Origin: a virus
IMG/VR virus record: IMGVR_UViG_3300031774_000001
Strand: one strand, 5' to 3'
Length of the DNA stretch: 64,000 nt
The translations under genes and the position numbers were made by a program. The notes under the pieces are model-generated. The model did not search any database. It saw only the letters and a list, made by a program, of their open reading frames with translations, and was not told the DNA's origin. Shown in pieces: positions 1 to 64,000 of the stretch. Within the stretch, counting starts at the first letter, position 1. Every line of letters starts with the position of its first letter.

Positions 1-1116
1 ACAATTAACGGACAAGGATCAGCAATAAGATTTAATCATCCTAACCTTGCTAGTTTTCCTACAGCTGCAACTTATTCAGGTACACCTGCTTTAGATGAAG
101 CAACACTTAAACCTTATATCGCAACAGCGTCAGGTTGGGTAAATTTATTAACAGAAAATGATCCTGTTGAAAGACACTCAAATGTTAATACAACAGGAAT
201 TTCAGATGGACAAGGACTTGTTTGGAATGCTTCAACAACAAGATTTGAAGCAGGTTCACTTGGTGGAACAATTGGTAGATACGAAGACGCTTCAGCAAGA
301 TTTGCAGTAACTTATAATAGTTCAACTTCATATAGATTTACTTCACACTATGGAACAACTGATAATCCAACACTTTATATAAAACAAGGTACAACTTTTG
401 CTTTTGATTTATCTGCTTTAGCAGGATCACATCCTTTTGCTATACAAACTTCAAGTGGTGCTTACAATTCAGCAAATAGAATTGAAACAGGATTAACACA
501 CGTTGCTACAGATGGAACAGTTACAACAGGATTAAATGCTCAAGGTAAAACAAGTGGTGTATTATACTTTGATGTACCAATAAACCAATCTGGACCTATA
601 TATTACGTATGTACTGCTCATTCAAGTATGGCAGGTACAATAGAAGTTAATACAAAAGGATCAGGAAAAGTTTTACAACAAGTTAATACTCAAACAGGTG
701 CTGTTAATTCAGGAACAACAATATTTCCAGAAGACGACACAATTCCTCAAAATACTGAAGGAGATGAGTATATGACTTTAGCAATAACTCCTAAATCTGC
801 TACAAGTACATTAATGATTGAAGCACATATATTCTATTCACAATCAGCAGGTACTAGAGGTGGTGCAGGATTATTTAAAGATTCAGACGCAGACGCATTA
901 TCATTTACATCTAATTTTATAAAAGACGCAACCAGTATGGGTAATATGCAAGTGTTTTATTCAGAAACAACAGGTAATACTACTGCTAGAACATATAAGA
1001 TAAGATGTGGTAATATACAAAATGCAGGTACTTTTACCTTTAACGGTCAAGCAGGTTCAAGAAAGTTTGGTGGAACAGTTTTAAGTACAATTAGAATTTT
1101 GGAAATAGAAGCGTAG
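1..1116 (+). CDS. Virion structural/baseplate-associated protein, 5'-truncated, with a cupredoxin-like domain
   Basis: Frame 1 is open from base 1 through the tracked 628..1116 ORF; contains NPTLYIKQGTTFAFD..HPF..YYVCTAHSSMAG; lies directly upstream of gp8. Confidence 0.75.
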   Translation, partial: TINGQGSAIRFNHPNLASFPTAATYSGTPALDEATLKPYIATASGWVNLLTENDPVERHSNVNTTGISDGQGLVWNASTTRFEAGSLGGTIGRYEDASARFAVTYNSSTSYRFTSHYGTTDNPTLYIKQGTTFAFDLSALAGSHPFAIQTSSGAYNSANRIETGLTHVATDGTVTTGLNAQGKTSGVLYFDVPINQSGPIYYVCTAHSSMAGTIEVNTKGSGKVLQQVNTQTGAVNSGTTIFPEDDTIPQNTEGDEYMTLAITPKSATSTLMIEAHIFYSQSAGTRGGAGLFKDSDADALSFTSNFIKDATSMGNMQVFYSETTGNTTARTYKIRCGNIQNAGTFTFNGQAGSRKFGGTVLSTIRILEIEA

Positions 1117-1125
1117 AATAACTTG

Positions 1126-1133
1126 TATAAATA
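1126..1133 (+). promoter_or_regulatory. T4-type late promoter TATAAATA
   Basis: Exact gp55 consensus in the intergenic gap before gp8. Confidence 0.8.
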
Positions 1134-1150
1134 TAGATAAAGGAAAATAA

Positions 1151-2611
1151 ATGCCAGCGATTATAACAAATAAATTCAGAATACATAACTCGGAACAGTT
1201 CCAAGAAGCGTTTTCTGAAGCTTCAGGAAATACTTTCTATTTAGGAATAGGAAGACCTCAAGGATTTACTACTTCAACAAGAGGAGATGGTAGAACAAAT
1301 AATGAGGGTACAGACTTATTACCTGTGACTCCTGCAGACAATGAAAACACACAAAATTTTATATTTGATAGTATGTTGGCTTGTAAAAAAATTGCAAGTA
1401 CAAATGCTGGATTTGTAATTCCTAGAAGAAATTGGGTAACTTCTACTGTATATGATTATTACAGACACGATTTAGGAGAATATGTAACTGGTGGAACAAC
1501 AGCACAAACTTCAACAAGTGGCGCTGCTACTTTATATGACGCAACTTTCTATGTTTTAACTACAGCAAGAAACGTATATAAATGTTTAGATAATAATAAC
1601 GGTGCAGTTTCAACTGTAGAACCTACAGGAACATCAACAACAATATTAACAACTGCTGACGGATACAAGTGGAAATATATGTACACTTTAACTGCCGCTC
1701 AACAAGCAGATTTCTTATCTGTAGATTTTATGGCAGTTGCTACAAACGCAACAGTAAGTGCTGCCGCTGTAGATGGTGCAATTAACATAGTTAAAATTAA
1801 AACAGCAGGTTCTGCTGGTACAGACGGAACACACGCAGGTGTTCCAATACGAGGAGATGGATCAGGTGGTATATGTTCAGTAACTATAACTTCAGGTGCA
1901 GTTACAGGTGTAACCGTAACTACTCCAGGAACAAATTATACTTTTGCGTATATTAAACTTACAGATATAAATTCTGCTGGTGGTGGTTCATTAATTAGTA
2001 CAGAATTAGATGTAATGATTGAACCAAAAGGTGGACACGGATTTAATGCAGTACAAGAGTTAGGTGGATTTTTTGTTATGTTAAATACAAGTTTAGAAGG
2101 AACTGAATCAGCAAATTCAGGTGACGTAACTGTTGCAAACGATTTTAGACAAGTTAGTTTGATAAGAGACCCAAAAGCAAGTGGAGTTGCCGCTACTTCT
2201 AATACTTTAAGAGCAACAAAAGCAGTTGTTGGTTCTGGAAATACAGGAACATTTTCTGTTGATGAAAAAATTACACAAGCAAGCACAGGTGCAGTTGGAA
2301 AAGTTGTAGAGTGGGATCCATCAAATAAAATATTATATTATATTCAAACAAGACACAATGATGAGGGAGTAGATAGCAACGGTAATCAAACAGCGTTTAG
2401 TGGTACAAATATTATCACAGGTGCAGATACATCAGCGACTTTAACACCTGATACAACAACAGGTACAGTTAATAGCCAAACATTTGTAAGTGGATATTCT
2501 AGTTCAGAAATAGACCACGGTTCTGGTGAAATAGTTTATGTAGAAAATAGAGCACCAATAACAAGAGCTGCGGATCAGACCGAGAATATCAAACTGATTA
2601 TAGAATTTTAG
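1151..2611 (+). CDS. gp8: Baseplate wedge subunit gp8
   Basis: MPAIITNKFRIHN start, VIPRRNW, VYKCLDNN, DGYKWKYMY, C-terminal IVYVENRAPITRAADQTENIKLIIEF typical of marine T4-like gp8. Confidence 0.9.
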   Translation: MPAIITNKFRIHNSEQFQEAFSEASGNTFYLGIGRPQGFTTSTRGDGRTNNEGTDLLPVTPADNENTQNFIFDSMLACKKIASTNAGFVIPRRNWVTSTVYDYYRHDLGEYVTGGTTAQTSTSGAATLYDATFYVLTTARNVYKCLDNNNGAVSTVEPTGTSTTILTTADGYKWKYMYTLTAAQQADFLSVDFMAVATNATVSAAAVDGAINIVKIKTAGSAGTDGTHAGVPIRGDGSGGICSVTITSGAVTGVTVTTPGTNYTFAYIKLTDINSAGGGSLISTELDVMIEPKGGHGFNAVQELGGFFVMLNTSLEGTESANSGDVTVANDFRQVSLIRDPKASGVAATSNTLRATKAVVGSGNTGTFSVDEKITQASTGAVGKVVEWDPSNKILYYIQTRHNDEGVDSNGNQTAFSGTNIITGADTSATLTPDTTTGTVNSQTFVSGYSSSEIDHGSGEIVYVENRAPITRAADQTENIKLIIEF

Positions 2612-2620
2612 GAGAGATAA

Positions 2621-8677: not shown

Positions 8678-8681
8678 GAAA

Positions 8682-8904: not shown

Positions 8905-9816
8905 ATGGCTATAAGACAAATATTACCAAATCAAACGCTAGAAGATTTAAGACTTCAGTTTAATGCTTTAGCGTCTAGTGATTTTGGAGATATAGGAACA
9001 TTAGACTCTTCACTATCAGCAACAACTGTTATAGGTGCTGTAAATGAATTGTCTGCTCAAGTAGGTGCCGCTGAGGGTTGGAAGATGGAAGATTCTTCTT
9101 CAACTATACAGCAAATTGGTGCAGGTCAAACAGCTAGATTTTTCGGTTCATCAAATCAAATAAATGCTATTGTATCTGTTCCAGATACGTTAACACTTTC
9201 ACTAACAGATAGTGTAACTCTTGTAACTTCTTTAACAGCTCCAACTGTTAATGCAGGTACATTATCTATATCAAGTGGTTATATTACAGACTCAAGTGGT
9301 ACTATAAGCTTTGATAACGAAAATATAACAACAAATAATGAAGTGTCTGGTGGTACAGGTACTTTTGGAACAGTTGCAGGTACAGGATCAAATCATACAT
9401 TAGGAACAATTCAAATTTCTGGTAATAATATTTCATCTACAGATTCAACAGAAATTAATATTGCAGACGGATTACAAGTTAGTGGACCTTTAAAAGCCGG
9501 TTCAACTACAATTAATCCTGCAGGTTCTAACAACATAGAATCATCAACAGGATTTACAGTATTCGGATCAAAACCATATATTAAATCAAATCAAATATTA
9601 TTTTCTGGAATAACTACAGGTAATAGTATTAACACAACGTTTGAAATAACTGACCCAACATCAAATAGAACAATGACTTTTCCAGACGCAACAGGAACAG
9701 TAGTATTAACAGATTCGGGAGTTGCAACTGGAAGTATTTTTACTGCTTCAGTATCTTTAGTAATATACAATTCAGCAGGGGTAGCGCAAAAGACGATTGT
9801 TGGTAGTGCTACATAG
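8905..9816 (+). CDS. Virion structural/fibre-like protein
   Basis: Ser/Thr/Gly-rich; TLEDLRLQFN N-terminus; DPTSNRTMTFPDATGTV fibre motif. Confidence 0.65.
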   Translation: MAIRQILPNQTLEDLRLQFNALASSDFGDIGTLDSSLSATTVIGAVNELSAQVGAAEGWKMEDSSSTIQQIGAGQTARFFGSSNQINAIVSVPDTLTLSLTDSVTLVTSLTAPTVNAGTLSISSGYITDSSGTISFDNENITTNNEVSGGTGTFGTVAGTGSNHTLGTIQISGNNISSTDSTEINIADGLQVSGPLKAGSTTINPAGSNNIESSTGFTVFGSKPYIKSNQILFSGITTGNSINTTFEITDPTSNRTMTFPDATGTVVLTDSGVATGSIFTASVSLVIYNSAGVAQKTIVGSAT

Positions 9817-9827
9817 GAGATTAAATT

Positions 9828-10757
9828 ATGGCTATACGAGCTCCTTTATATTATAGCGCAGGCAATTTGAAAGAAATGACTTCTACGGAAGTTGATGAAA
9901 TAATTTCACAAACAATCTATCAATATTCATTAGCGCCTTCAGTTGCATTATCAGTAATAAGTTCTGGTGGTAATGTAGGATCAATAACAGATACAAGACA
10001 ACAAGCGGGTACTCATTCAACAGACGCTTCATCTTTTCCTAGTGAGGCAACAACAGCAGAACCTACAACTGTAACTGTTACCTACGATAAAATACAATCA
10101 ACAGCATCCTCTGGTTCAGCACCAACTGATTCAGGAAAAACTTGGCCTTGTTATAGAACAGCAACTAATAATATTCAAGCAATGTCATTACAAGATGTTA
10201 AAGATACTTTTCTTCATCCTGCAATAGATAAATTAGTGGCGGCGACTTTAACAACTGAACAAGGTGGAACATATCATATTAATACAGCAACTAGTGTTGC
10301 AGGTTCTACTTTAGTTAACGCAACACCAGTTTTTGTAAATACTCAAGCAGATACAGGCGCTTATTCATCAGGAACAATTGGTGACCACGCATTAGATAAT
10401 CCTACAACAATTCAAAATTATTATTTACATAAAATAGATGGTAATAATCAATCTACAAAAGCACCACTTTATGTTACCGCTGGAAATGATTTAAGAGAGT
10501 ATGTAACAGCAGATTGGAATACTTTAATAGGTAATGCTCTTAAATATACAGCAGCTGCTTCAGTAGATGGATTTAAAATAACTTACAGTCATACTACAGG
10601 AACAAATAGAGGTTCTGGTATGGCAGATACAATATTAAATGGTTCTGGAAATTATCAAACAAGATTTGTTAATGCTAATGACTATAGAGCACAAGAATTT
10701 CCAAACGGTTCAGCGACAACATCAAATACTTGGTATTTGAAAATAAGTAAGAGTTAA
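9828..10757 (+). CDS. Putative virion structural protein
   Basis: Thr/Ser-rich with internal repeats (PLYYSAGNLKEM / PCYRTATNNIQAM / PLYVTAGNDLREY); SD GGAG upstream. Confidence 0.6.
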   Translation: MAIRAPLYYSAGNLKEMTSTEVDEIISQTIYQYSLAPSVALSVISSGGNVGSITDTRQQAGTHSTDASSFPSEATTAEPTTVTVTYDKIQSTASSGSAPTDSGKTWPCYRTATNNIQAMSLQDVKDTFLHPAIDKLVAATLTTEQGGTYHINTATSVAGSTLVNATPVFVNTQADTGAYSSGTIGDHALDNPTTIQNYYLHKIDGNNQSTKAPLYVTAGNDLREYVTADWNTLIGNALKYTAAASVDGFKITYSHTTGTNRGSGMADTILNGSGNYQTRFVNANDYRAQEFPNGSATTSNTWYLKISKS

Positions 10758-10773
10758 ACAATGAGAATTTATT

Positions 10774-11520
10774 ATGAAAATATTATTAACTGGTTCTGAT
10801 GGATTTATAGGAAAAAATCTAAAGGCATATTTAGAAGTAAGAAATCATACTATTATTGAGATAGACCGTAATAGTGGTAATGATTTACTAACCTGTGATT
10901 TAAAATATGATGTAGATTGGGTAATACATTTAGCAGGACTATCTGGTGTTAGAGATAGTTTAAAAAATCCTACCGAGTATTGGACACAAAACGTTATCGC
11001 AAGTCAAAGAGTATTTGACCATTTCAAAGACACAAAAATTTTATACGCAAGTTCAAGTACTGCATACGAACCTTGGAGAAATCCATATGCAATGAGTAAG
11101 TATTCTATGGAACAAATTGCACCTAAAAAATCTGTTGGTATGAGATTTACTACAGTCTACGGACCAGGTGCTAGAGAAGGTATGTTGATACCTAGAATAT
11201 TAAGAAATGATGTACCATATGTTAATACAAATCATTGGAGAGATTTTATTCACGTAGATGATATATCTTCAGCAATAAACACTTTAATATCTTCAACTGA
11301 AACTGTAATACCATTTGGAGATGTTATAGATATTGGTACTGGAGAAATACATAAACTAACAGACATACTACAATACTTTAAGATTGATAGTGAAGAAAGA
11401 TTAGCAAATGAATTGGAAAGAATATTGAATAAAGCAGATGTATCATTTTTAAATTCTTTAGGTTGGAAACCTGAAGTAAATTTAAGAACATATATTACAA
11501 AAAATAGGATAACAAATTAA
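10774..11520 (+). CDS. NAD-dependent nucleotide-sugar epimerase/dehydratase (extended SDR)
   Basis: TGSDGFIG Rossmann motif, HLAG, YASSS, YAMSK catalytic motif, RFTTVYGP, RDFIHVDD. Confidence 0.9.
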   Translation: MKILLTGSDGFIGKNLKAYLEVRNHTIIEIDRNSGNDLLTCDLKYDVDWVIHLAGLSGVRDSLKNPTEYWTQNVIASQRVFDHFKDTKILYASSSTAYEPWRNPYAMSKYSMEQIAPKKSVGMRFTTVYGPGAREGMLIPRILRNDVPYVNTNHWRDFIHVDDISSAINTLISSTETVIPFGDVIDIGTGEIHKLTDILQYFKIDSEERLANELERILNKADVSFLNSLGWKPEVNLRTYITKNRITN

Positions 11521-12005
11521 TGGCGATTTTTAGTGGAAAAATAACTGAAGCAACTTATACAAATGAAAAAAAAGATACAATTGAAATTTTATATAAAGAA
11601 GAGAATAAAATAATTCCATATTATATAGAAGTTAATCATCAGCATCCAGATTTTCAAGATTTAATAAAAGAGTATTCTTTAGATAAAATACAAAATACTA
11701 CATCTAATAAAATTAAAATATATAATGACAATCTTAAAGAAGCTAATAAAATAGATTTGAAAAAATTAACAGATGAATTAGAATATAAAGCAAATAACTT
11801 TACTAATTGGTATGACTTTATGTTTCATTTTGATGAAAAAAATGCTACTCATATGAATTTTTTATTTGAATTAAAATTAAAAATGTTTGATGAAAAAAAG
11901 GTGAAAGTAATGTCCGAAGATAAGAAAAATCTTATTAGAGATTCTTTAAATCCTTTGGAGATTATAAAAATTGTTAATAAAAAAAATAAGATTAAAAATG
12001 ATTAA
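11520..12005 (+). CDS. Hypothetical protein
   Basis: 161-aa ORF overlapping both neighbours. Confidence 0.7.
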   Translation: MAIFSGKITEATYTNEKKDTIEILYKEENKIIPYYIEVNHQHPDFQDLIKEYSLDKIQNTTSNKIKIYNDNLKEANKIDLKKLTDELEYKANNFTNWYDFMFHFDEKNATHMNFLFELKLKMFDEKKVKVMSEDKKNLIRDSLNPLEIIKIVNKKNKIKND

Positions 12006-12729
12006 TATAATATGTGTAAGGTGGGGAGATAAGTATATTGAATATACTGAAAAGTTAAAACAACAAGTTGAAAAAAAATGTTCAGTTCCTTTTAAATTTT
12101 ATTGTTTAACTGATAAACCAAAAAAAGATTATGAAATACAATTACCAACTCATTGGGATTCGTATTATATAAAAGATAGATTTTGGGCATATAGAAAACT
12201 TTACATCTTTAATGAAGATTTATTTCCTACTATAAAGGGTGATGATTTTCTTTACCTAGACCTAGATGTTCTCATACATCAAGATTTAAAATATTTCTTT
12301 GATTTAGAAATGAGTAGACCTTATATTGTAAGAGGTTGGTGGAATGATATTAATATGTGTAAAAAGAATTTTGGTAAGATAATTTCAACACCTTTAAACT
12401 CTTCTGTTATTAGATGGACTAGAGGACAATTAAAACCTGTTTATAATTATGTTGAAAAAAATAAAGATTTAGTTTTCTTTACATATAAAACAATAGATAA
12501 TTTTTATAATCATAAGTTTTATAATATTCATAATGAAGATGAAGGATTTTTTAAACCTTTTCCTAAAAATGATATATATTCTTGGTATAAAGGAAATGTA
12601 TTTCCAGATGATATGGGAGAAAAAATATTGCGACCTGATTGTAAAATATGTTTATTTAATAATAGTTATGTGTGGAAAGATAAAGCAGAACATATGAAAC
12701 AAATTGAGGAGATAAAAAGATTATGGTAG
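11998..12729 (+). CDS. GT-A-fold glycosyltransferase-like protein
   Basis: IICVRWGDKY N-terminus, FYCLTD, YLDLDVLI (DxD), LNSSVIRW; ATG at 11998 preferred over TTG at 11971. Confidence 0.7.
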   Translation: MINIICVRWGDKYIEYTEKLKQQVEKKCSVPFKFYCLTDKPKKDYEIQLPTHWDSYYIKDRFWAYRKLYIFNEDLFPTIKGDDFLYLDLDVLIHQDLKYFFDLEMSRPYIVRGWWNDINMCKKNFGKIISTPLNSSVIRWTRGQLKPVYNYVEKNKDLVFFTYKTIDNFYNHKFYNIHNEDEGFFKPFPKNDIYSWYKGNVFPDDMGEKILRPDCKICLFNNSYVWKDKAEHMKQIEEIKRLW

Positions 12730-13394
12730 AATATATTAAATATACTCCTAAATTATCAAACAATTGGTCAAAGGCTTGGTCTGAAACACAAAAACAAAGA
12801 CCTTGGCAATCAAGAAGATTATTAGATTCATCAACTACTTCACAACTACAAGGTAAGTTATGGTTAGTAAATGAATTACAAAAACTTGATTTAAAATTTT
12901 CAAAAGTTTGTTTAGTTGGTGGATGGTTTGCTCAATTTATAACACCTTTAATGATTGATAATTTTAATGTTGAGTTTATTCACAATTGGGAGATTGATGA
13001 AGACGCTCAAAAAATTAGTTATAAGTTTAATAGAAGATATAAAGAAGATAATAGATATAGAGCATATTGTTCCAATCTTTTTGAATATCATTGGAGTGAT
13101 GAAGTTAAAAAGTATTATAATTATTGGAATAAATTTAGAAATGCAAATTATGATTTAGTTATTAATACATCTTGCGAACATATGTATCCTATGAAAAAAT
13201 TAAGAGAGTATAATCCTGATTTAAAATCTTGGTTTGTTTTACAGTCAACAAACGAAACAAAATTTAAAGACCATATTAATTGTGTTAATAGTACAAAAGA
13301 ATTAGCAGAGCAAGGTGGATTAAAACAAATATTATATGAAGGACAACTAACTTTAGATAATGGTATGACTAGATTTATGGTAATTGGAATATAA
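12723..13394 (+). CDS. Class I SAM-dependent methyltransferase-like protein
   Basis: VCLVGGWF glycine motif, acidic EIDED after strand 2, DLVINTSCEHM. Confidence 0.6.
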   Translation: MVEYIKYTPKLSNNWSKAWSETQKQRPWQSRRLLDSSTTSQLQGKLWLVNELQKLDLKFSKVCLVGGWFAQFITPLMIDNFNVEFIHNWEIDEDAQKISYKFNRRYKEDNRYRAYCSNLFEYHWSDEVKKYYNYWNKFRNANYDLVINTSCEHMYPMKKLREYNPDLKSWFVLQSTNETKFKDHINCVNSTKELAEQGGLKQILYEGQLTLDNGMTRFMVIGI

Positions 13395-15213: not shown

Positions 15214-15216
15214 ATT

Positions 15217-21536: not shown

Positions 21537-21540
21537 TAGT

Positions 21541-26382: not shown

Positions 26383-27009
26383 ATGGCTTATTTAGTACCA
26401 GGAACAACAGGAATAAAATACTTAAAACAATTCAATGGAATAAGACGTACAAAGGAAGGTATGTTATACCTAACTTCTGTAAATCCTAACCAAAGCAATG
26501 ACGCAATTGAAGTATCAAAATATTTTGAAGATGGAAAATCAGATGCTGTTGGAAGAGACCAAACAGATTACGTTGAAGAAAGATTAGAAATGTTAAATGT
26601 TCAATATTTCACAGGTGATGGTTCAACTAAAGCATTTACTATCTCAAATCCAGTATTAAACGAAACAAGACTAGCATTATTTTTAGATGGTGTTAAACAA
26701 CAACCTTATTCAGACTGGTCTTTATCAAATGGTAATCAGATAAATTTCGTACTAATTCCTAGTGCTAGTGCTAGTATTGTGGTTGGTGTAGTTAAGAGAA
26801 GATACTACAATAATGACAGCGATAAGTTTCAACAAATTAATTATTCAGACGATACTACAACTAGTTTTCTTATAAATAGTACTAGTGGAGATTTAGTTAA
26901 AAGAAGTAAAAAGGGAGTTACAAGGTCAGCAGAAACAACAGACGACTTTGAAACTTTTGAAAGCACAACGGCAAGTGTAGCTACAACAACATACCAAAGT
27001 GCTGTTTAA
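26383..27009 (+). CDS. Putative structural protein
   Basis: FTGDGSTKAFT..LDGVKQQP domain common in T4-like virion proteins. Confidence 0.6.
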   Translation: MAYLVPGTTGIKYLKQFNGIRRTKEGMLYLTSVNPNQSNDAIEVSKYFEDGKSDAVGRDQTDYVEERLEMLNVQYFTGDGSTKAFTISNPVLNETRLALFLDGVKQQPYSDWSLSNGNQINFVLIPSASASIVVGVVKRRYYNNDSDKFQQINYSDDTTTSFLINSTSGDLVKRSKKGVTRSAETTDDFETFESTTASVATTTYQSAV

Positions 27010-31713: not shown

Positions 31714-33147
31714 ATGTCAAAACTTTCACAATTTAGTATAACAACAAAACAAAAAGATGAATTCTATGGATTTCATAGAACTAATCCTGGGCAAACTATT
31801 AATAGAGATATTAAAATAGTTGCTGGTAATCAAGCTGTCTATGAATATAATTTAAGTACAGCATTTGATTCTAGTACAGCAACTTATTCAAAAAGTACTT
31901 CTATTCATACAGAAGATACAAATCCAAGAGAAGTAAGATTTGGTAATAGTGGTCTGAAAATGTATACTGTTGGACATACTGATAAACATATTGATGAGTA
32001 CGATTTAACAACAGCATTTGATGTTTCTACAGCAACTTGGAGAACACACTTCAATGTTGGTACGCAAGAAACAAGTCCACAAGGATTAGCTTTCAACGAT
32101 ACTGGAACTAAAATGTATGTTGTAGGTACTGCTGGAAATTTAGACGCAAGTATCGCTGCTGACAATGTTTATGAATATGCATTATCAACTGCTTGGCAAG
32201 TTGAAACAGCAACTTATACAGATTTATTTTCATTAGCTGCTACAGAAACAGACCCACGTACAATGAGATTTAATGCAGACGGATCATTAATGTTTATTTT
32301 AGGTGATGACGGAAATGATGTTGGAGAATATTCATTATCTACAAACTATGATGTTTCTACAGCAACTTATGTTGATTCATTTTCTTTCGCTGCTGAAGAT
32401 ACTTCACCAATAGGATTTGGTTTCAATACATTAGGAACTAAAATATATATTTGTGGTAGTGTCGGTTCAGATGTTATGGAATATACATTAGTAACAGGTT
32501 TTGATATTTCAACTACACAAGCACTCGACTCTACATATACTTTTACTGCTGCTACTACACCAAGCGCACCAATAAGAAATGTAAGAGGACTAGAATTTAA
32601 TACTACAGGATCAAAAATGTATCTTATTATGGATGCTGGTAAATATATTGTAGACGGTGGAGATGATGAATTACCTATCACTCACGAAACAAGATTTAGA
32701 AATACTATGAAATTTTATGAAGGTAATACTTACAAATTTGATGTTTCTGACTCAAGTAATATTGGACATCAATTTAAATTTTCAACTACTTCAGATGGAA
32801 CGTGGGGTGGTGGAACTGAATACTCTACAAATGTAACTACTTCTGGAACTGCTGGAAGTGGTGGCGCATATGTACAAATAGTTGTTCCAAGAAAAACACC
32901 TGATCCAGACCCTGGTAGTGCTGTTGATAAATTATACTACTACAATGGTAAACATAGTTTAGCAGGTGGGGATATTTACACTCCTGAATGGAAGGGTAAT
33001 TTACAAATAACATACACTAATGGTCAAGACGACATAGATACTAGATATAAAACAAAGAATCAAGAAGATATCTTTGAGGATAGTGTTCTATGGAAAGCTG
33101 GATTAGAGTGGACTATAGTTAACGGTAATTTAACAGTAGGACTATAG
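31714..33147 (+). CDS. Beta-propeller repeat protein with degenerate cupredoxin-like domain; putative adhesin
   Basis: Repeated EY.LSTAFD.STATY..P.G..FN..G.KMY blades; FYEGNTYKFDVSDSSN.GH..LYYY domain. Confidence 0.7.
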   Translation: MSKLSQFSITTKQKDEFYGFHRTNPGQTINRDIKIVAGNQAVYEYNLSTAFDSSTATYSKSTSIHTEDTNPREVRFGNSGLKMYTVGHTDKHIDEYDLTTAFDVSTATWRTHFNVGTQETSPQGLAFNDTGTKMYVVGTAGNLDASIAADNVYEYALSTAWQVETATYTDLFSLAATETDPRTMRFNADGSLMFILGDDGNDVGEYSLSTNYDVSTATYVDSFSFAAEDTSPIGFGFNTLGTKIYICGSVGSDVMEYTLVTGFDISTTQALDSTYTFTAATTPSAPIRNVRGLEFNTTGSKMYLIMDAGKYIVDGGDDELPITHETRFRNTMKFYEGNTYKFDVSDSSNIGHQFKFSTTSDGTWGGGTEYSTNVTTSGTAGSGGAYVQIVVPRKTPDPDPGSAVDKLYYYNGKHSLAGGDIYTPEWKGNLQITYTNGQDDIDTRYKTKNQEDIFEDSVLWKAGLEWTIVNGNLTVGL

Positions 33148-48911: not shown

Positions 48912-50147
48912 ATGGCCGATACAGAACAAAAATTAGAGGCGTTAGAAGCAAAAGCAGTGGAAGAGGCGAATTCACCTAATCCAATGGCGGATGCTCCTAA
49001 AAAGAATGCTGTTGCGGCTGAACCTTCTCATATTGCTAAAATGAGTGAATATGAAGATTTAGGTAAGGCAGTAGTAAAACCAACAGATTCAAATCCTGAC
49101 GCAACTAAAAAAGTTACAAAAGTTTCTGGACAAGCTCCTCAAAAATCACAAGGTGCTGCTGACCCAATGCCAAAATTATCGGGACACAACACTAAATTGG
49201 AGAATAAAGAAACTAAAAAAGACGAAGACGGTAAAGAAATTAAAGAAGGCGATTTACCACCAGCACTTCAAAAAGCTATTGACGCTAAGAAAGACAAAGA
49301 AGACAAAAAAGATGTCAAAGAGTCTGACGAGAAAAAAGATGCTAAAAAAGATGACGCTGAGGTAAGAACTGAAGACGAAGATAAAGAAAAGAAAAAAGAC
49401 ATTGACGTAAAAGAACACGTTGACGCCTTAATCGCTGGAGAGAAAGACTTAACCGAAGAGTTTAAGACAAAAGCTGCAACCATTTTTGAAGCGGCAATCA
49501 AATCTAAAGTAAAAGAAATTGCTGAAGAAATGGAAACAGATTATAATACTAAATTAGAGCAAGAAAGTGCTAAAGCAAAATCTGAATTAACTGAAAAAGT
49601 TGATTCTTACCTTGCATACGTTGTTGAAGAGTGGATGAAAGAAAACGAAATCGCTCTTGAAAGAGGTATCAAAGGAGAAATTGCTGAAGACTTTATCAAT
49701 GGTCTGAAAAAATTATTTGAAGACCACTACATTGATGTTCCAGATGAAAAATATAACGTGCTTGAAGACCAAGCAGGTAAAATTGAAAAACTGGAAAAAG
49801 ACCTCAATGAGCAGATTGAAAAAAATGTTGAGTTAAATAAGGAAGTTGGAACTAAAGTTAGAGATGAAATCAAAGCTAAAGTTTCTGAAGACCTTGCTGA
49901 CACAGCAAAAGAAAAATTTGCTAAACTTGCTGAAGAGATTGAGTACTCTAACGCTGAAGACTATCAAAAGAAATTAGAAACTGTTAAAGAATCTTATTTT
50001 GGAAAGAAAACTCCGACTGCTGAAGAGAAACTAGATGATGGAGCGGCAGATGGATCAACACCAATTGGTGAAGATTTATCAAAATCTATGGCTGCTTACA
50101 GCGCCGCTATAAGCAAAACTAAAGACATTAAGTTGTCTATTAAGTAA
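48912..50147 (+). CDS. gp22: Prohead scaffold protein gp22
   Basis: EEFKTKAATIFEAA, VDSYLAYVVEEWM.EN, KESYF; charged coiled coil. Confidence 0.92.
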   Translation: MADTEQKLEALEAKAVEEANSPNPMADAPKKNAVAAEPSHIAKMSEYEDLGKAVVKPTDSNPDATKKVTKVSGQAPQKSQGAADPMPKLSGHNTKLENKETKKDEDGKEIKEGDLPPALQKAIDAKKDKEDKKDVKESDEKKDAKKDDAEVRTEDEDKEKKKDIDVKEHVDALIAGEKDLTEEFKTKAATIFEAAIKSKVKEIAEEMETDYNTKLEQESAKAKSELTEKVDSYLAYVVEEWMKENEIALERGIKGEIAEDFINGLKKLFEDHYIDVPDEKYNVLEDQAGKIEKLEKDLNEQIEKNVELNKEVGTKVRDEIKAKVSEDLADTAKEKFAKLAEEIEYSNAEDYQKKLETVKESYFGKKTPTAEEKLDDGAADGSTPIGEDLSKSMAAYSAAISKTKDIKLSIK

Positions 50148-50169: not shown

Positions 50170-51510
50170 ATGTACTTATCTGAAACACACGAAAAAAAAT
50201 GGCAGCCAGTACTAGAGCATCCTGATTTACCAAAAATTACTGATGCTTATAGACGTGCCGTTACATCTGTGATATTAGAAAACCAAGAACGTGCTTCTAA
50301 AGAAGATAACGCTTACTTGGCTGAAGCTGCTCCGACTAACGCAACAGGTAGTGCTGTTGCAAATTGGGATCCAATCCTAATTTCACTAGTTAGACGAGCT
50401 ATGCCTAATCTAATCGCATACGACATTGCAGGTGTTCAACCAATGACAGGTCCTACAGGACTTATATTCGCAATGAGAAGTAGATATACTTCACAAACAG
50501 GCGGAGAGTCGTTCTTTGATGAAGCTGATACAGATTTTTCAGGCAGAAATGCTGCTGGATCTTCTGTTGACGGTTATTCAGCAACAGACCACGCAGGAAC
50601 TAATCCTGGTGTATTAAACGACGGTTCACCTGGAACTTATACTAAAGGCGAAGCAATGACTACAGCGAAAGCTGAAGCATTAGGCGACGCTAGCGGTAAT
50701 GCATTTGCTGAAATGGCTTTCTCAATAGAGAAATCTACGGTAACTGCTAAATCAAGAGCTCTTAAAGCTGAATACACTATGGAACTTGCTCAAGACTTAA
50801 AAGCAATCCACGGTTTAGACGCAGAAACAGAACTTGCAAACATCTTATCAGCTGAAATTTTAGCTGAAATCAATAGAGAAGTTGTAAGAACTATCTACAT
50901 CAATTCAGAAAAAGGTGCTCAAACTGGTAACGTAACTACAGCGGGAATTTTTGACCTAGATACAGACTCAAATGGCAGATGGTCAGTTGAGAGATTCAAA
51001 GGTCTTATGTTCCAACTTGAAAGAGATGCTAATAGAATTGCACAAAGAACCAGAAGAGGAAAAGGTAATATAATTATCTGTTCTTCTGATGTTGCTTCTG
51101 CTCTTCAAATGGCAGGCGTATTAGACTACACACCAGCTCTTAACAACAACCTAAACGTTGATGACACAGGTAATACTTTTGCAGGTGTTCTTAACGGTAG
51201 ATTTAAAGTATACATTGATCCTTACTCAGCTAATAGTGCTGCTAAACAGTACTACGTTGTTGGATACAAAGGTACTTCACCATATGACGCAGGAATATTC
51301 TATTGCCCATATGTACCTCTACAAATGGTTAGAGCTGTTGGACAAGACACTTTCCAACCAAAAATCGGATTCAAGACTAGATATGGCTTAATCGCTAATC
51401 CATTCGCTGAAACTGGTGCTCAGTCAGGTGCTGCTACAGCAGTAAATGACGCTGGAAGTGCTAACTCTAATAGATACTACCAAAAAGTTCAAGTTGCTAA
51501 CTTGATGTAA
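50170..51510 (+). CDS. gp23: Major capsid protein gp23
   Basis: GVQPMTGPTGLIFAMR, SRALKAEYTMELAQDLKAIHGLDAE, FYCPYVPL, KTRYG. Confidence 0.97.
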   Translation: MYLSETHEKKWQPVLEHPDLPKITDAYRRAVTSVILENQERASKEDNAYLAEAAPTNATGSAVANWDPILISLVRRAMPNLIAYDIAGVQPMTGPTGLIFAMRSRYTSQTGGESFFDEADTDFSGRNAAGSSVDGYSATDHAGTNPGVLNDGSPGTYTKGEAMTTAKAEALGDASGNAFAEMAFSIEKSTVTAKSRALKAEYTMELAQDLKAIHGLDAETELANILSAEILAEINREVVRTIYINSEKGAQTGNVTTAGIFDLDTDSNGRWSVERFKGLMFQLERDANRIAQRTRRGKGNIIICSSDVASALQMAGVLDYTPALNNNLNVDDTGNTFAGVLNGRFKVYIDPYSANSAAKQYYVVGYKGTSPYDAGIFYCPYVPLQMVRAVGQDTFQPKIGFKTRYGLIANPFAETGAQSGAATAVNDAGSANSNRYYQKVQVANLM

Positions 51511-55345: not shown

Positions 55346-55373
55346 ATTATATACAAAAAACGTGAAAAGTCAA
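55346..55373 (-). promoter_or_regulatory. Putative sigma70-type antisense promoter
   Basis: Minus strand TTGACT-16 nt-TATAAT. Confidence 0.6.
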
Positions 55374-55508: not shown

Positions 55509-55514
55509 TAATAT
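55486..55514 (+). promoter_or_regulatory. Sigma70-type promoter for gp55
   Basis: TTGACA-17 nt-TAATAT. Confidence 0.7.
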
Positions 55515-55523
55515 GTAATCATT

Positions 55524-56060: not shown

Positions 56061-56062
56061 TT

Positions 56063-57631
56063 ATGAAAAGTGATAAGATTTTAATAGTCGGTGGAGGTTC
56101 TGCTGGCTGGATGACGGCGGCGACTTTAATTAAAGCATTTCCAAACAAAGATATTACAGTAATAGAATCACCAAATATACCAACTGTTGGTGTTGGTGAA
56201 AGTACAATATCAAAAGTTAAACAATGGACTAAATTTTTAGGCATTGATGATAAAGAATTTTTAAAACATACAGATGGCACTATTAAGTTTAGTATTAAGT
56301 TTACAGACTTTAATGGAAAAGACGAGCCAGCATTTCATTATCCTTTTGGTCCTATTAAAATAGAAGGAACTCAATTAAATTATAATGACTGGTGGATGAA
56401 AAAAGAATTTTATCCAGAAACACCTGTTTCAGATTATGCTGATAGTTTTGCTCCTAATATGGCATTAGTTAATCAAGGTAAAGGTGCTTTTAACTTTCAC
56501 GGTTTTGAACTTGACCGAGATTCTGCTTATCAGTTTGACGCAACTAAATTTGGTCTATGGTTAAGAGACCATTATTGTTTACCAAGAGGTGTTAAACATA
56601 TACAAGAAGATATTATTGATGTGCCTACAAATGAGAATGGTATTAAATGTGTAGTTACAAAAACATATAGTTACTACGCAGATTTATTTGTTGATTGTAC
56701 AGGTTTTAAATCAATGCTTTTAGGTGGTGCATTAAAAGAACCTTTTGAAACTATAAAAAATCTACCAAACAATAAAGCGTGGGCGACTAGAATTCCTTAT
56801 GTTGATAAAGAAAAAGAAGTAGAATGCTTTACCAATTGCACAGCAATAGAGAACGGTTGGGTGTGGAACATACCATTGTGGAGTAGAATTGGTACAGGTT
56901 ATGTTTATTCAGATAAATTTGTAGATGATGAAACTGCTTTAAAAGAATTTAAAAATCATTTAGCAAAAGTAAGACCTGGATTTAATAAAGAAGAACACGA
57001 ATTTAGAAACATTACAATGAGAACTGGTATACACGAAAGATTATTTGTGAAAAATTGTGTTGCAATAGGACTATCTGCTGGATTTATTGAACCATTAGAG
57101 AGTAATGGTTTGTTTTCAGTACACGAATTTTTAATGATGTTAGTAAGAAATTTAAGAAGAGGTGAAATTACACGTTGGGATAAAGATAACTTTACGTTTG
57201 CTTGTAAATCTATCTTTAAAGGATTTGAGGAATTTGTTGGGTTGCATTATGCATTGTCAACAAGAAATGATACACCATATTGGAAAGCAAATAATGAAAA
57301 AGTATGGGAAGAAAGTTTATATACTTTTAAACCTAAAATTATGTTAGGATATTTACAAGCTGCTTTACAAAGAAATATGGCGTCGGAGTTTCCTGTTGAT
57401 CCTATGGATAGACCAGGTAAATATGGATTGCATTATATAGCAGCTGGTTTAAATTGGTGCCCAATGGATTTACCTAACTTAATAAATCTAACACATAAGA
57501 GTGAACAAGAAATAAAAGAACGTATGGAACCATTTATAAAGAAATTAGATGAACGTAAACAACAATGGAATAAAGAAGTTGAAAAGTTTCCAAGTTATCA
57601 CGATTTTATACAGGAGAATTATTACAAGTGA
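56063..57631 (+). CDS. Flavin-dependent tryptophan halogenase-like protein (PrnA family)
   Basis: GGGSAGW, VGVGEST, K in TIKFSIKF, FVDCTGF, GWVWNIP (WxWxIP), FIEPLESNG. Confidence 0.88.
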   Translation: MKSDKILIVGGGSAGWMTAATLIKAFPNKDITVIESPNIPTVGVGESTISKVKQWTKFLGIDDKEFLKHTDGTIKFSIKFTDFNGKDEPAFHYPFGPIKIEGTQLNYNDWWMKKEFYPETPVSDYADSFAPNMALVNQGKGAFNFHGFELDRDSAYQFDATKFGLWLRDHYCLPRGVKHIQEDIIDVPTNENGIKCVVTKTYSYYADLFVDCTGFKSMLLGGALKEPFETIKNLPNNKAWATRIPYVDKEKEVECFTNCTAIENGWVWNIPLWSRIGTGYVYSDKFVDDETALKEFKNHLAKVRPGFNKEEHEFRNITMRTGIHERLFVKNCVAIGLSAGFIEPLESNGLFSVHEFLMMLVRNLRRGEITRWDKDNFTFACKSIFKGFEEFVGLHYALSTRNDTPYWKANNEKVWEESLYTFKPKIMLGYLQAALQRNMASEFPVDPMDRPGKYGLHYIAAGLNWCPMDLPNLINLTHKSEQEIKERMEPFIKKLDERKQQWNKEVEKFPSYHDFIQENYYK

Positions 57632-59540: not shown

Positions 59541-59559
59541 TAAGTTTTAGTTTTATATT

Positions 59560-61865: not shown

Positions 61866-62472
61866 AGTAGTAAAAGATTTTTTACCACAAACTCTTTTTA
61901 AATTTATGAAAGATTATGTTGAAGACGAAAAAGTATCTTGGAAATGGCAAGATAATTCAACATATCATAAAGATACAGCAACGGTTAAAGCGGATGGAAA
62001 GTTTAAGTTTGGTAAAACAATATATACACACCCTGCTTTAAATCCAGATAATAAAGAATTTATAAATGAAAAATATATGTCTATATTTGGAGTGTTTGTA
62101 GACTTTCAAAACGAACATCAAAGTCATAAAACAGAACATTTAATTAAAATGAAATTAAATTTATATCCAAATGAAGGTAAACAAGTACAACACGGAACAC
62201 ATAAGGATATATATTCTGCTCATATTCCTTTGAGTCCAAAACATATGACTCGTATGGGTGAAGATGTTTTAGATAAAACTACCTTAACTTCTGTATTTAA
62301 TTTTCATACTTGTAATGGTTATACTTGTATTGGAAAAGAAAAGATACCATCTGTTGCTAATCAGATAGTAATATTTAATCAAACTGAACATTATGGAGTT
62401 ACTCAATCAGATATTTCAAGAAGAATAGTATTTAATATGAACGTAAGTGTAAATGAAAAAACTAACAAATAA
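61858..62472 (+). CDS. Fe(II)/2OG oxygenase-like protein
   Basis: KLNLYP, HKD, TCNGYT, SVANQIVIF, EH, RIVFNMN. Confidence 0.7.
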   Translation: MIKVVKDFLPQTLFKFMKDYVEDEKVSWKWQDNSTYHKDTATVKADGKFKFGKTIYTHPALNPDNKEFINEKYMSIFGVFVDFQNEHQSHKTEHLIKMKLNLYPNEGKQVQHGTHKDIYSAHIPLSPKHMTRMGEDVLDKTTLTSVFNFHTCNGYTCIGKEKIPSVANQIVIFNQTEHYGVTQSDISRRIVFNMNVSVNEKTNK

Positions 62473-63604
62473 AACTGATACAAGAAATGCATTAGAAGCG
62501 TTTGGTGTAGAAACAACAGGTGATGAACTTATTACAAGTAAGGGCAATCTAAAAGGTGTTGTTCAAAACGAAGAAGAATTACAAACTAATATTGATTCAG
62601 TTTATGAGTATTGGAAGAAAAGAGGTTTTCCTTATTATGCTACAGATAAACAATATAGAGAAGCACAATTTAAAACTTTACAATCAACAGATTTCAAAGG
62701 ATTATTAACGCAAGATAAAGTTATAAAACCGAATCAAACAGGTTTATCTTTAGCTTGGTCGTATATGCCACATAGTTTTGGTATTAGATGTGGTAAAATG
62801 AGAACTCCTATGGAGATATATGAAAATGAAGAACACTTTAAAAAAGGTATACGTAAGTTATTAACAGGTAGTTTTTTTGGTAAACAATCAGTAGATACTT
62901 TAATGCCTATCGCAAGTAATTTAGAAGGTGAAATAACTGAAATATCTCCTGAATCAAAACATAAATCAGAAAGTGTAATGAGGTCTTTATTAAGAAGATA
63001 TACAGGAACTCAATGTGTATCTAATTTTAGACCCACAGCAGCGGCGTGTTTATATTCACACTTTGCCCATCCAGGTGCTATGGTATGGGATATGTCAATG
63101 GGATATGGTGGACGTATATTAGGTGCAATTATATCAGATATTAATTATGTTGGTACTGATCCAGCAGAATTAACATTTAAAGGACTACAACAAATTAAAG
63201 AAGATTTTGGTAGAGATAATAGACACTATTTCTTAAACAAGTGTGGTAGTGAAGTATTTGAACCAAAAGAAGATAGTTTAGATTTTGCATTTACAAGTCC
63301 ACCTTATTTCAATTGGGAACAATATGGTGAAGAAGAAGGACAATCATTTAATCAATATAGTGGTAATGAAGAGTGGAACAATGGCTTTTTAAGAAAGACT
63401 ATACAAAATGCATATAAAGGATTAAAGAAAGATAAGTATATGGGGTTAAATGTAGCAAACATTAAATCACATAAAACCTTTGAAGATGATACAGTACGAA
63501 TCGCTGTAGAAGAAGGATTTACACACACGGATACCTATAAATTACAGTTATCCTCGCAAGAATCTGGTGCAAAATATGAGCCAGTTTTCATATTCAAGAA
63601 ATAA
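62453..63604 (+). CDS. DNA amino-methyltransferase (N4-C or N6-A)
   Basis: WDMSMGYGGR SAM-binding motif I followed by FTSPPYF catalytic motif IV. Confidence 0.8.
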   Translation: MKKLTNKTDTRNALEAFGVETTGDELITSKGNLKGVVQNEEELQTNIDSVYEYWKKRGFPYYATDKQYREAQFKTLQSTDFKGLLTQDKVIKPNQTGLSLAWSYMPHSFGIRCGKMRTPMEIYENEEHFKKGIRKLLTGSFFGKQSVDTLMPIASNLEGEITEISPESKHKSESVMRSLLRRYTGTQCVSNFRPTAAACLYSHFAHPGAMVWDMSMGYGGRILGAIISDINYVGTDPAELTFKGLQQIKEDFGRDNRHYFLNKCGSEVFEPKEDSLDFAFTSPPYFNWEQYGEEEGQSFNQYSGNEEWNNGFLRKTIQNAYKGLKKDKYMGLNVANIKSHKTFEDDTVRIAVEEGFTHTDTYKLQLSSQESGAKYEPVFIFKK

Positions 63605-63644
63605 AATCGTCTAAAAGTCGCATAAAATAAGGGGAAATTAACAC

Positions 63645-63673
63645 TTGACTTTCAGGTCAATCGGTGTTATTAT
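63645..63673 (+). promoter_or_regulatory. Sigma70-type early promoter
   Basis: TTGACT-17 nt-TATTAT with extended -10 TG. Confidence 0.65.
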
Positions 63674-63684
63674 TATCTTACATT

Positions 63685-64000
63685 ATGAGAAAAAGCACTA
63701 CAATTAATTTAGACACAAAAAGTCAATTAGCTAAATTACTTGCAACAGAAAATATAATCATACAACATAACGCTGTATCAACAGCAAGTTTTAACACAAA
63801 GACTCGTGTATTAACTCTTCCTATATTTAAAGAATCACACGGTGATGTTTATGATATGTTAATTGCTCACGAATGTGCTCACGCATTATTTACTCCAGAA
63901 GACGGATGGAAAAAAATATGTGATGATGATGAGTTAAGAACTTACGTTAATGTATTAGAAGATACTAGAATAGACAAAAAAATTCAAAAGAAATACCCAG
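63685..64000 (+). CDS. CobT-like/HExxH metallopeptidase-domain protein, 3'-truncated (not in the ORF track)
   Basis: LAKLLATEN..TASF..RVLTLP..YDMLIAHECAHALFTP..NVLEDTRI; open to the window end. Confidence 0.8.
   Translation, partial: MRKSTTINLDTKSQLAKLLATENIIIQHNAVSTASFNTKTRVLTLPIFKESHGDVYDMLIAHECAHALFTPEDGWKKICDDDELRTYVNVLEDTRIDKKIQKKYP

Follow-up and report, generated by a model that had tools for sequence, protein, structure and literature searches.

The window, by which we mean the whole stretch of 64,000 nucleotides analysed here, belongs to a T4-like marine myophage, kin of the phages of Pelagibacter (SAR11). About twenty restriction-type words of 4 to 6 bp are under very strong purifying selection in this DNA and have disappeared from it through synonymous recoding, and several of the purged words are selectively neutral beside one particular flanking base. 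Counts are given as observed/expected, the expectation coming from 300 shuffles of synonymous codons in which all proteins and the overall codon usage are preserved. The window was compared with G002, a complete 177-kb relative with a 98% identical major capsid protein, with its cultured relative Mosig, isolated on strain HTCC1062, with the 42.8-kb podophage HTVC021P, which shares this isolation strain and has no annotated methylase, and with a pooled set of 48 non-redundant relatives (753 kb). The features of the window are the following:

1..64000, unstranded: purge made by codon choice of CATG, HGATCD, HGATGC, GAGACD, TCGA, CCGG and CACTG (300 shuffles)
1..64000, unstranded: purge made by codon choice of HCTAAG, DCAGAG, CATCGD, CTCAGD, CACAGW and YGCAGC (300 shuffles)
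2166..2171, + strand: GAGACC, one of six (exhaustive count)
15794, 26555, 46644, 55323 (- strand) and 56565: starts of the remaining GAGACC copies (exhaustive count)
26542..26546, + strand: GATGC without a 5' G, tcaGATGCtgt (exhaustive count)
49338..49342, + strand: GATGC without a 5' G, aaaGATGCtaa (exhaustive count)
50242..50246, + strand: GATGC without a 5' G, actGATGCtta (exhaustive count)
51025..51029, + strand: GATGC without a 5' G, agaGATGCtaa (exhaustive count)
32525..32528, unstranded: TCGA, one of only two, the second at 34038 (64 expected)
62453..63604, + strand: orphan amino-methyltransferase of 383 aa, with motif I (DMSMGYGG) followed by motif IV (SPPY) (motifs, Pfam, AF2 model)

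The sequence-only reading of this DNA had reported that CATG is avoided and that GATC and GATGC are tolerated almost only as GGAT/ATCC, and exhaustive counting bears this out. CATG is absent (0/129; lowest shuffle 106) and all 57 GATC sites lie within GGATC or GATCC, 49 of them as GGATCA/TGATCC, three as GGATCC, four as GGATCT/AGATCC and one as CGATCC. HGATCD is purged (0/80.2; lowest shuffle 56), as against a near neutral GGATC (60/74). The depletion of GATGC also depends on the flank (HGATGC 4/95 versus GGATGC 14/7.6): 14 of the 18 GATGC/GCATC survivors are GGATGC/GCATCC, and the four lacking the 5' G, all of which read GATGCT, sit where they had been flagged (26542, 49338, 50242 and 51025). 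GATGC/GCATC is replaced by GACGC/GCGTC, found 81 times against 27.5 expected.

These depletions act at the DNA level, symmetrically on both strands and through synonymous choice. As had been noticed by eye, His before a G-starting codon is always CAC (89 CAC, 0 CAT; 68 CAC and 220 CAT in other contexts of the window), and before codons that start with C (CCx excepted) Asp is always GAC where the preceding base is not G (69 GAC, 0 GAT). In addition, C-ending codons never precede Met (0 of 357). The strand symmetry that had been claimed is seen for GATGC (12/62 on the + strand, GCATC about 6/40); GAGAC (5/40 on the + strand, GTCTC about 1/6) and CTAAG (6/28 on the + strand, CTTAG about 4/36) are likewise depleted in both orientations. 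Other 4-mers are neutral in the window (CTAG 131/142, GTAC 218/227, ACGT 133/116, TTAA 795/751), so there is no general bias against palindromes. Codon effects do explain why GGATC is followed by A and GATCC preceded by T (GGA-TCA in 23 of 29 cases, xxT-GAT-CCx in 19 of 20), but it is practically inconceivable that the pattern as a whole springs from codon usage, dinucleotide bias or amino-acid composition, a reading refuted by the protein- and codon-preserving shuffles, 300 of 300 of which fail to match the observed counts, and opposed by the depletion in both orientations and the neutrality of other palindromes.

Flank dependence extends to further words. GAGACD is missing from the window (0/40.7) versus an expected number of GAGACC (6/5.4), C following every GAGAC. 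CTAAG, CAGAG, CATCG, CTCAG, CACAG and GCAGC each have a rescuing flank of their own, and flanked forms such as GCTAAG (8/11), CCAGAG (8/9) and CATCGC (4/5) are tolerated. The shuffle-based counts revealed no rescuing flank in the window for CATG, TCGA (2/64) or CACTG (2/42). RGCY is two-fold depleted, again by codon choice, CCWGG (56/55) and GGWCC (29/30) are neutral, and GANTC is not depleted (121/137). The idea that GGAT/ATCC is the common denominator of the tolerated sites has to be abandoned, as GAGAC is rescued solely as GAGACC (that is, GGTCTC) and six further words are rescued by other flanks. Nor is GGAT a general rescue: GGATCT is purged in the window despite containing GGATC (4/26), the GGATC and GGATGC rescues are separate in relatives, and CATG is not rescued at all.

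In G002, the same contrasts are found for HGATCD and GGATCD (0/229 vs 106/158), HGATGC and GGATGC (10/211 vs 40/24), GAGACD and GAGACC (6/114 vs 32/17) and CTCAGD and CTCAGC (3/75 vs 23/19), and CATG is absent (0/344). At least nine words are rescued in this genome; CCTGTG is rescued and CCTGAG is not, GGATC is rescued and GGAGAC is not. Synonymous alternatives are used without restraint in the rescued words; of its GGATGC copies, for instance, 30 of 40 are read as xxG GAT GCx. The pooled relatives tolerate GGATGC (52/55 vs 6/283 for HGATGC) and CTCAGC (36/36 vs 8/186 for CTCAGD), and in this set CATG (GCATGD 9/353), ACGT (GACGTD 0/186) and TCGA are all without rescue. The set of purged words differs from relative to relative, as expected under selection by sequence-specific nucleases. 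The spared context varies among myophage lineages as well, being GGATC in the window and only GGATCC in Mosig and in another relative, G003 (19/6.7 and 19/6.4), in which GGATCD is purged (0/98 and 9/96); Mosig spares only GGATCC and GGATGC. HTVC021P purges more than 15 words, among them GGATC (0/38), GCTAAG (0/11), CATCGC (0/6) and, also completely, CTCAGC. Since this podophage shares its host strain with Mosig, its full purge of GGATC and GCTAAG means that the exceptions are supplied by the myophage. Rescue through a G on the 5' side (C on the 3' side) is real and phage-derived, as had been proposed, and these comparisons show that the flank exceptions are a property of the myophage lineage and not of the attacking enzymes.

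The sequence-only reading had predicted a phage-made modification, and orphan DNA methyltransferase genes are indeed predicted in this lineage, both in the window and in G002. The product of 62453-63604 has a borderline match to N6_N4_Mtase (PF01555; 23.2 bits, under the gathering cut-off of 26.7), and several homologues 96-98% identical to it carry a precomputed PF01555 match. DMSMGYGG and FTSPPYF are invariant across nine homologues, down to 26% identity. Its AF2 model (pLDDT 81) has a class I MTase fold, for which the best VIA-align matches are TrmN (Z 17.8, rmsd 2.2, 170 residues) and Trm11 (Z 17.6); generic class I methyltransferases reach Z 14-16, and the top rows contain no DNA methylases. 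SPPY is a motif characteristic of N4-cytosine enzymes, and the protein's ESM Atlas clusters, all viral, are auto-named cytosine-N4 DNA MTase. We take it to be a probable N4-cytosine DNA methyltransferase that may write some of the protective marks. No homologue was found in Mosig. In the window, the genes on either side of it have no Pfam match. About 15 kb past the position of the window end, the interval from DNA polymerase to UvsX in G002 contains a beta-class DPPY methylase and another SPPY gene, which brings this genome to three methylases in total, two of them SPPY paralogues; at least four SPPY paralogues are present in the relative G007. No nuclease gene lies between or beside the two methylases of this G002 slot, where an adjoining 96-aa ORF has no Pfam match. 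An orthodox restriction-modification system was rejected, as by Pfam a cognate endonuclease gene adjoins neither these methylases nor the window gene. Marine Myoviridae-like genomes have 2.2 methylase genes on average, with mostly m4C motifs (PMC8919816).

The extent of the purge argues that the phage DNA is largely unmodified, and several known routes of modification were discarded. Dam-type protection of all GATC is contradicted by the loss of HGATCD (0/80 in the window, 0/229 in G002). Hypermodification of cytosine at GpC by a phage C5-methylase together with a TET/JBP enzyme has reportedly been described by Burke et al. in 2021; neither gene family was found in G002, where searches for the C5-methylase family PF00145 (matched in 10/14 control genomes) and for Tet_JBP PF12851 (matched in only 1/14, below the family cut-off) were negative. 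The TGT/DpdA family PF01702 (matched in 14/14 control genomes) and the dCMP hydroxymethylase/ThyA family PF00303 are absent from G002, G003, G007 and Mosig, which speaks against 7-deazaguanine modification and T4-type whole-genome hmC, respectively.

We lean, with little more than even confidence, towards a purge driven by nucleases whose exceptions would come from marks made by the phage's own orphan methyltransferases. Sequence-specific DNA-cutting enzymes encountered in infection would be the source of selection. The orphan enzymes would mark short sequences that overlap a site only in a given flank context, and marked copies would escape cutting, making their purging unnecessary. Most economically, the DPPY enzyme would mark GGATC/GGATG-type words and so rescue GATC and GATGC, and the SPPY enzymes, predicted to act on N4 of cytosine, would mark the junction cytosine of the CC/GC steps in GAGACC, CCAGAG, GCTAAG, CTCAGC and CATCGC. 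Whether a mark blocks cutting would depend on the individual nuclease, which could be why CATG, TCGA and ACGT are never rescued. What is retained of the earlier proposal of host nucleases opposed by a phage modification is the nuclease-like selection, the phage-derived rescue and the orphan methylases, and what is lost is GGAT/ATCC as the shared motif. A tree of DNA polymerases gives the one-sided GGATC exception two origins, each in a clade with a beta-class methylase, and the two purged clades that carry an MT-A70 methylase spare GGATCC only; with five independent clades, this association is not significant. The one-sided exception is missing in lineages with SPPY orthologues of 72-77% identity and in one clade with a beta-class orthologue of 67% identity, so that gene presence alone does not predict the pattern. 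Counting against our explanation too, G002 has three methylases for at least nine rescued words, no single short motif accounts for all, GGATCT is purged in spite of the GGATC within it, and the GGATGC exception spans Mosig and G002, which share no methylase.

An alternative that we hold to be unlikely, albeit worth keeping in mind, is a myophage shield other than the product of a classical methyltransferase, either a different modification of bases at G/C-rich junctions or a DNA-bound protein. It could be N2-methylguanine made by Trm11-like SPPY enzymes, or a hypermodification made by products of the many 2OG-Fe(II) oxygenase, radical-SAM and aminotransferase genes. The GGATGC exception is common to Mosig, in which MT-A70 is the sole recognisable DNA methylase, and G002, which lacks MT-A70, so it spans lineages without a common methylase. 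The best structural matches of the window SPPY model are guanine-N2 RNA methyltransferases, but their lead over generic class I enzymes is small and both the motif and the Atlas names point to N4-cytosine. Likewise, the window has 2OG oxygenases and, at 8905-22771, a cluster with radical-SAM, class-III aminotransferase, sulfotransferase and hydroxylase genes, but this cluster lies among tail-fibre genes and resembles glycan or small-molecule chemistry, and the TGT/DpdA, Tet_JBP and hydroxymethylase genes were not found in G002.

We consider it improbable that the exceptions reflect true nuclease specificity (cutting of HGATCD, GCATCD, GAGACD and so on, but not of the G-flanked forms) with phage modification uninvolved. 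Type IIG and Type III enzymes can indeed have degenerate positions in their specificities, and many lineages agree in the flank that they spare for GATGC, CTAAG, CAGAG and CTCAG. However, the podophage from strain HTCC1062 fully purges GGATC, GCTAAG, CATCGC and CTCAGC, Mosig purges the GGATCD that the window lineage keeps, and nine unrelated enzymes would need one common flank rule of 'not G/C'. Similarly improbable, in our view, is a self-inflicted purge, in which short-specificity nucleases of the phage or of co-infecting phages shred host DNA for nucleotides, so that the phage itself has to be free of those words and host restriction plays no part. SAR11 is reported to have no identifiable restriction-modification systems (PMC9516812), yet HTVC021P and Mosig are heavily purged; the purge is absolute (as for CATG in G002), and purged sets vary among close relatives as if tracking gene content. 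Nevertheless, more than 15 purged words are too many for the nucleases of a 42.8-kb podophage, no nuclease domain was detected in the scanned window ORFs or beside the methylases, and the flank exceptions would be left unexplained.

Staphylococcus phage K reportedly lacks GATC, and restriction-site avoidance in phages has reportedly been surveyed by Sharp in 1986 and Rusinov et al. in 2018. The window resembles such virulent phages in the near-total, strand-symmetric loss of words by synonymous choice and in the different words lost by related phages. It differs in its unusual breadth of about 20 words, in the full tolerance beside one flanking base, which we did not find in the literature searched, and in that SAR11, the clade to which the hosts of the cultured relatives belong, is reported to be without restriction systems. 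Overlapping Dam or Dcm methylation blocks ClaI, XbaI and BsaI, and orphan phage methylases include the Dam enzymes of T4 and P1 and, from Bacillus, the multispecific enzymes of phages SPR and phi3T. There too, a neighbouring or overlapping mark protects only the overlapping copies of a site and the orphan methylases are phage-encoded; here, in contrast, the effect is an evolutionary footprint in a genome instead of a digestion artefact, and the SPPY family lies at the edge of what Pfam recognises. Chloroviruses possess methylases of short specificity, M.CviPI (GC), M.CviPII (CCD) and M.CviJI (RGCY). The m4C motifs RGCY, CCNGG and GGWCC are known from marine Myoviridae-like genomes (PMC8919816). 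Several methylases marking 2-5 bp, the dominance of m4C in marine myophage-like genomes and the depletion of RGCY are points of similarity, but partner nucleases are absent here, CCWGG and GGWCC are neutral, and the contexts inferred here (GGATC, GGATG and CC/GC junctions) do not figure in the reported viral motifs; methylation of GATCC is reported only for a gammaproteobacterial genome. GANTC depletion in some pelagiphage clades, which partitions the SAR11-phage phylogeny (Seong et al., 2022; PMC9516812), is likewise motif depletion in phages whose host clade has no known restriction systems, but GANTC is undepleted in the window, many other words are depleted, and flank exceptions are not described in that work.

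It is possible, although we put it forward as doubtful, that the poorly recognised and expanding SPPY family, together with interchangeable methylases of the polymerase-UvsX slot, writes marks of 2-5 bp, perhaps as m4C at CC/GC junctions, perhaps even as N2-methylguanine. In that case, the flank-conditional purge would offer a read-out of each phage's methylome from sequence alone, and SAR11-type hosts, thought to have no restriction enzymes, would harbour a large hidden repertoire of them.

Exhaustive counting confirmed and extended the motif avoidance that the sequence-only reading had described by eye. The null consisted of 300 shuffles in which synonymous codons were swapped between positions, leaving proteins and codon usage unchanged; counts for the window are given as observed/expected under this null. 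CATG is indeed absent (0 sites, 0/129), and all 57 GATC sites in the window occur as GGATC or GATCC, with HGATCD at 0/80 versus 60/74 for GGATC. GATGC/GCATC was found at 18 sites, 14 of them GGATGC; the other four lie where exceptions had been noticed (near 26541, 49338, 50241 and 51025), and all four are GATGCT (HGATGC 4/95 versus GGATGC 14/7.6). Codon choice reflects the same avoidance: His before G is always written CAC (89 codons, no CAT), Asp before C (next codon not CCx, preceding base not G) is always GAC (69 codons, no GAT), and none of 357 codons before Met ends in C. As had been claimed, GACGC serves as the replacement word (81 versus 27.5 expected), and asymmetric words are depleted in both orientations. 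No depletion was seen in the window for CTAG, GTAC, ACGT, TTAA, GANTC, CCWGG or GGWCC, all of which are neutral. Selection by nucleases, proposed earlier on the basis of these patterns, is well supported.

The rule is not limited to GGAT. GAGAC (6/46) is left only as GAGACC = GGTCTC (6/5.4 versus 0/41 for GAGACD), and several other words are purged except beside particular flanking bases.

Further purged words in the window and their rescued or tolerated forms (observed/expected)
CTAAG 10/63; rescued as GCTAAG 8/11
CAGAG 12/51; rescued as CCAGAG 8/9
CATCG 4/35; rescued as CATCGC 4/5
CTCAG 8/37; rescued as CTCAGC 5/8
CACAGW 5/30; tolerated as CACAGS 26/16
YGCAGC 8/37; tolerated as RGCAGC 50/36

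TCGA (2/64), CCGG (2/19) and CACTG (2/42) are nearly missing whatever the flank, and no flank rescues CATG in the window (CCATG 0/70, GCATG 0/30). Of the four GGATCN words, GGATCT is purged (4/26) and the other three (GGATCA, GGATCG, GGATCC) are neutral; codon effects (GGA-TCA, xxT-GAT-CCx) account for the excess of A in the position following GGATC. Since rescued words are used despite available synonyms, they are truly neutral and not just unavoidable.

The window encodes all its long ORFs on the plus strand and has a G+C content of 32%. At the DNA level it best matches the cultured Pelagibacter phage Mosig, at 74% identity across part of the query, and HTVC008M. Gene order is Mosig-like (baseplate/tail-fibre, neck, terminase, sheath, tube, portal, capsid, UvsY, UvsW, gp55, gp46/47), and the capsid proteins share 91% amino-acid identity. 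Several regions encode enzymes:

8905-22771, plus strand: about 20 small enzyme genes amid tail/baseplate genes, including the next four
13394-14476, plus strand: radical-SAM enzyme
16369-16956, plus strand: sulfotransferase
18894-19991, plus strand: class-III aminotransferase
20769-21536, plus strand: Asp/Arg-hydroxylase-like protein
35797-37136, plus strand: homologues of Mosig heme oxygenase and phycocyanobilin:ferredoxin oxidoreductase (67-72% identity), flanked by tail-fibre and neck genes
56063-57631, plus strand: flavin-dependent tryptophan-halogenase homologue, 522 aa (Pfam Trp_halogenase, E = 1e-99)

Mosig's equivalent of the first block shares only part of it, and several ORFs of the window block match no family. 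The halogenase gene, which has no Mosig counterpart, is inserted with gp55, the late sigma factor, on one side and the gp47 homologue on the other. Genes like those at 35797-37136 would not be expected in a phage whose relatives infect a non-photosynthetic host.

As a proxy for the full genome we used G002 (IMGVR_UViG_3300008952_000005), a complete relative of 177,460 bp with terminal repeats, whose capsid protein is 98% identical to that of the window. All rules of the window are repeated there with about three times the counts (HGATCD 0/229, GGATCA 80/80, GGATCT 15/65, HGATGC 10/211, GAGACD 6/114 versus GAGACC 32/17, YGCAGC 0/81); 30 of its 40 GGATGC sites are xxG-GAT-GCx. RGCY (AGCT, AGCC/GGCT, GGCC), reported as the commonest m4C motif of marine viral genomes (PMC8919816), is depleted about two-fold in all flank contexts in the window (179/376), and likewise in G002. 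Runs of A also fall below the codon-shuffle expectation in the window and all relatives (AAAAAA 207/299 in the window, 590/968 in G002, 431/688 in Mosig); something other than restriction avoidance must lie behind this depletion.

Within the phage group, the set of purged words differs from lineage to lineage. Mosig retains CATG (374 versus 422 expected from base composition) and is purged of ACGT (0/251) and CGCG (absent); the relative G003 is purged of CATG, ACGT, TCGA and ACAGT, and the relative G007 of TTAA, CTAG, CATG and ACGT. The exceptions vary as well. The window lineage has a one-sided GATC exception (GGATC), and Mosig (GGATCC 19/6.7, GGATCD 0/98) and G003 (19/6.4 and 9/96) have a purely two-sided one (GGATCC). 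The tolerated form of CTCAG is CTCAGC for the window lineage and the relative G004, and GCTCAG for G003 and the relative G006. The GGATGC, GCTAAG and CCAGAG exceptions reappear wherever the words are purged. Pooling 48 non-redundant contigs (753 kb) gave HGATGC 6/283 versus GGATGC 52/55, HCTAAG 16/480 versus GCTAAG 46/93, and CTCAGD 8/186 versus CTCAGC 36/36; in the same set a G flank does not rescue CATG (9/353), ACGT (0/186) or TCGA (8/333). G007 (IMGVR_UViG_3300030108_004017, 109 kb) carries at least four paralogous methylases with the catalytic motif SPPY. TTAA (87/743) and CTAG (16/249) are purged in this genome, where CTAG and CATG are kept only after a 5' G (GCTAGA 9/30, ACATGC 18/12.5); a G flank thus rescues CATG there, unlike in the window lineage.

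A podophage isolated on the same host strain as Mosig, HTCC1062, served as a control. HTVC021P (MH579717.1, 42.8 kb) has no annotated methylase and is heavily purged without exceptions (GATC 0/92, including GGATC 0/38; CTAAG 1/51, including GCTAAG 0/11; CATCGC 0/6; CTCAGC 1/8). It has also completely lost ACGG (0/79), GCGC, GGCC, GAATC (0/49), GCAGC (0/49) and CCAGC (0/43), an extreme purge for a phage whose host supposedly lacks restriction-modification systems. Purging by the phage's own nucleases is unlikely, because a 43-kb genome cannot encode so many. Given that HTVC021P shows no exceptions and that myophage lineages differ from one another, the exceptions are attributable to the myophage rather than to the enzymes that attack it. 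The earlier proposal of a phage-made modification thereby gains indirect support, as the exceptions are lineage-specific and phage-supplied and orphan methylases are present; the GGAT/ATCC specificity assigned to it was too narrow.

Three candidate methylases emerge from the window and G002, the two from G002 (142658-143887 and 143960-145009) lying in the slot between DNA polymerase and UvsX:

Window 62453-63604: SPPY methylase ORF, 383 aa, with AdoMet motif DMSMGYGG followed by SPPY (Pfam N6_N4_Mtase just below threshold); its G002 counterpart is 92% identical
G002 slot: SPPY paralogue, 409 aa
G002 slot: beta-class DPPY methylase, 349 aa (PF01555, E = 7e-40)

Both motifs of the window enzyme are invariant in its homologues, and its AlphaFold2 model (pLDDT 81, confident) has a class I methyltransferase fold closest to the amino-methyltransferases TrmN (Z 17.8) and Trm11 (Z 17.6), with generic methyltransferases at 14-16. 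Its ESM Atlas neighbours are viral clusters automatically named cytosine-N4 DNA methyltransferase; the NCBIfam match was weak, and a sequence search of the Protein Data Bank returned no match. Homologues of the beta-class enzyme carry only generic 'adenine-specific' names, which give no clue to specificity. No nuclease gene was found near the two slot methylases, nor any C5-methylase, Tet_JBP, TGT/DpdA or ThyA-family gene in G002.

In Mosig and G003 the slot holds an MT-A70 (DPPW) methylase. Contigs with an MT-A70 enzyme at least 86% identical to that of G003 are all GGATCC-only (HGATCD 1/346, GGATCD 9/137, GGATCC 31/13), and every contig whose beta-class enzyme shares at least 79% identity with that of G002 keeps GGATCA and GGATCC. 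On the DNA-polymerase tree, two separate clades with the beta-class enzyme show the one-sided exception, and both purged clades with MT-A70 lack it; the G004 group is a beta-class clade but GGATCC-only. The pattern is suggestive but spans only five independent clades.

A single rule with a mark at every GG/CC step, every GpC or every G before S is rejected because some words with such steps are rescued (GGATC, CCAGAG, GCTAAG, CCTGTG) and others are not (GGAGAC, CCTAAG, CCATG, GCATG, GCAGAG, CCTGAG); the GG/CC version holds in part. RGCY methylation would not rescue GCTAAG, which has a preceding purine at 0 of 17 sites in G002, nor CTCAGC, where the next base is A or G at 22 of 23. That the window SPPY methylase writes the GGATC exception is not supported, as most relatives with 72-75% identical orthologues lack it; SPPY orthologues at 72-77% identity are found in lineages lacking the one-sided form. 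Nor do the three G002 methylases predict the exception by being present or absent, since lineages lacking the one-sided form have orthologues.

We favour a model in which the slot methylase would shield GGATC/GGATG-type words and the SPPY enzymes the junction cytosines of the remaining rescued words, the success of each mark depending on the nuclease faced. The former part is close to the 'm6A in GGAT' of the sequence-only reading, with the modified base here left unspecified. The rescued words as a whole fit no one short motif, Mosig and G002 both show the GGATGC exception yet have no methylase in common, SPPY orthologues occur in lineages without the one-sided GGATC exception, and the purge of GGATCT is unexplained; these misfits make the reading a model and not a demonstration.

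Marine Myoviridae-like genomes carry a mean of 2.2 methylases, with m4C motifs predominant (PMC8919816). Our literature search found no published description of flank-conditional avoidance. SAR11 genomes reportedly lack identifiable restriction-modification systems, and the pelagiphage depletion noted concerns GANTC only (PMC9516812). Phages isolated on SAR11 (Mosig, HTVC021P) and their uncultured relatives are purged on a scale that contradicts the picture of a host clade without restriction systems and points to nucleases yet to be discovered, either in the flexible part of SAR11 genomes or in competing phages. Should the exceptions be footprints of phage methylation, methylase specificity in uncultured phages would become predictable from genome sequence alone, and such predictions could be checked on the cultured Mosig and possibly on HTVC008M. 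The purged words of each lineage form a barcode of its past infections, which could help to connect uncultured marine phages with the host populations they infect.
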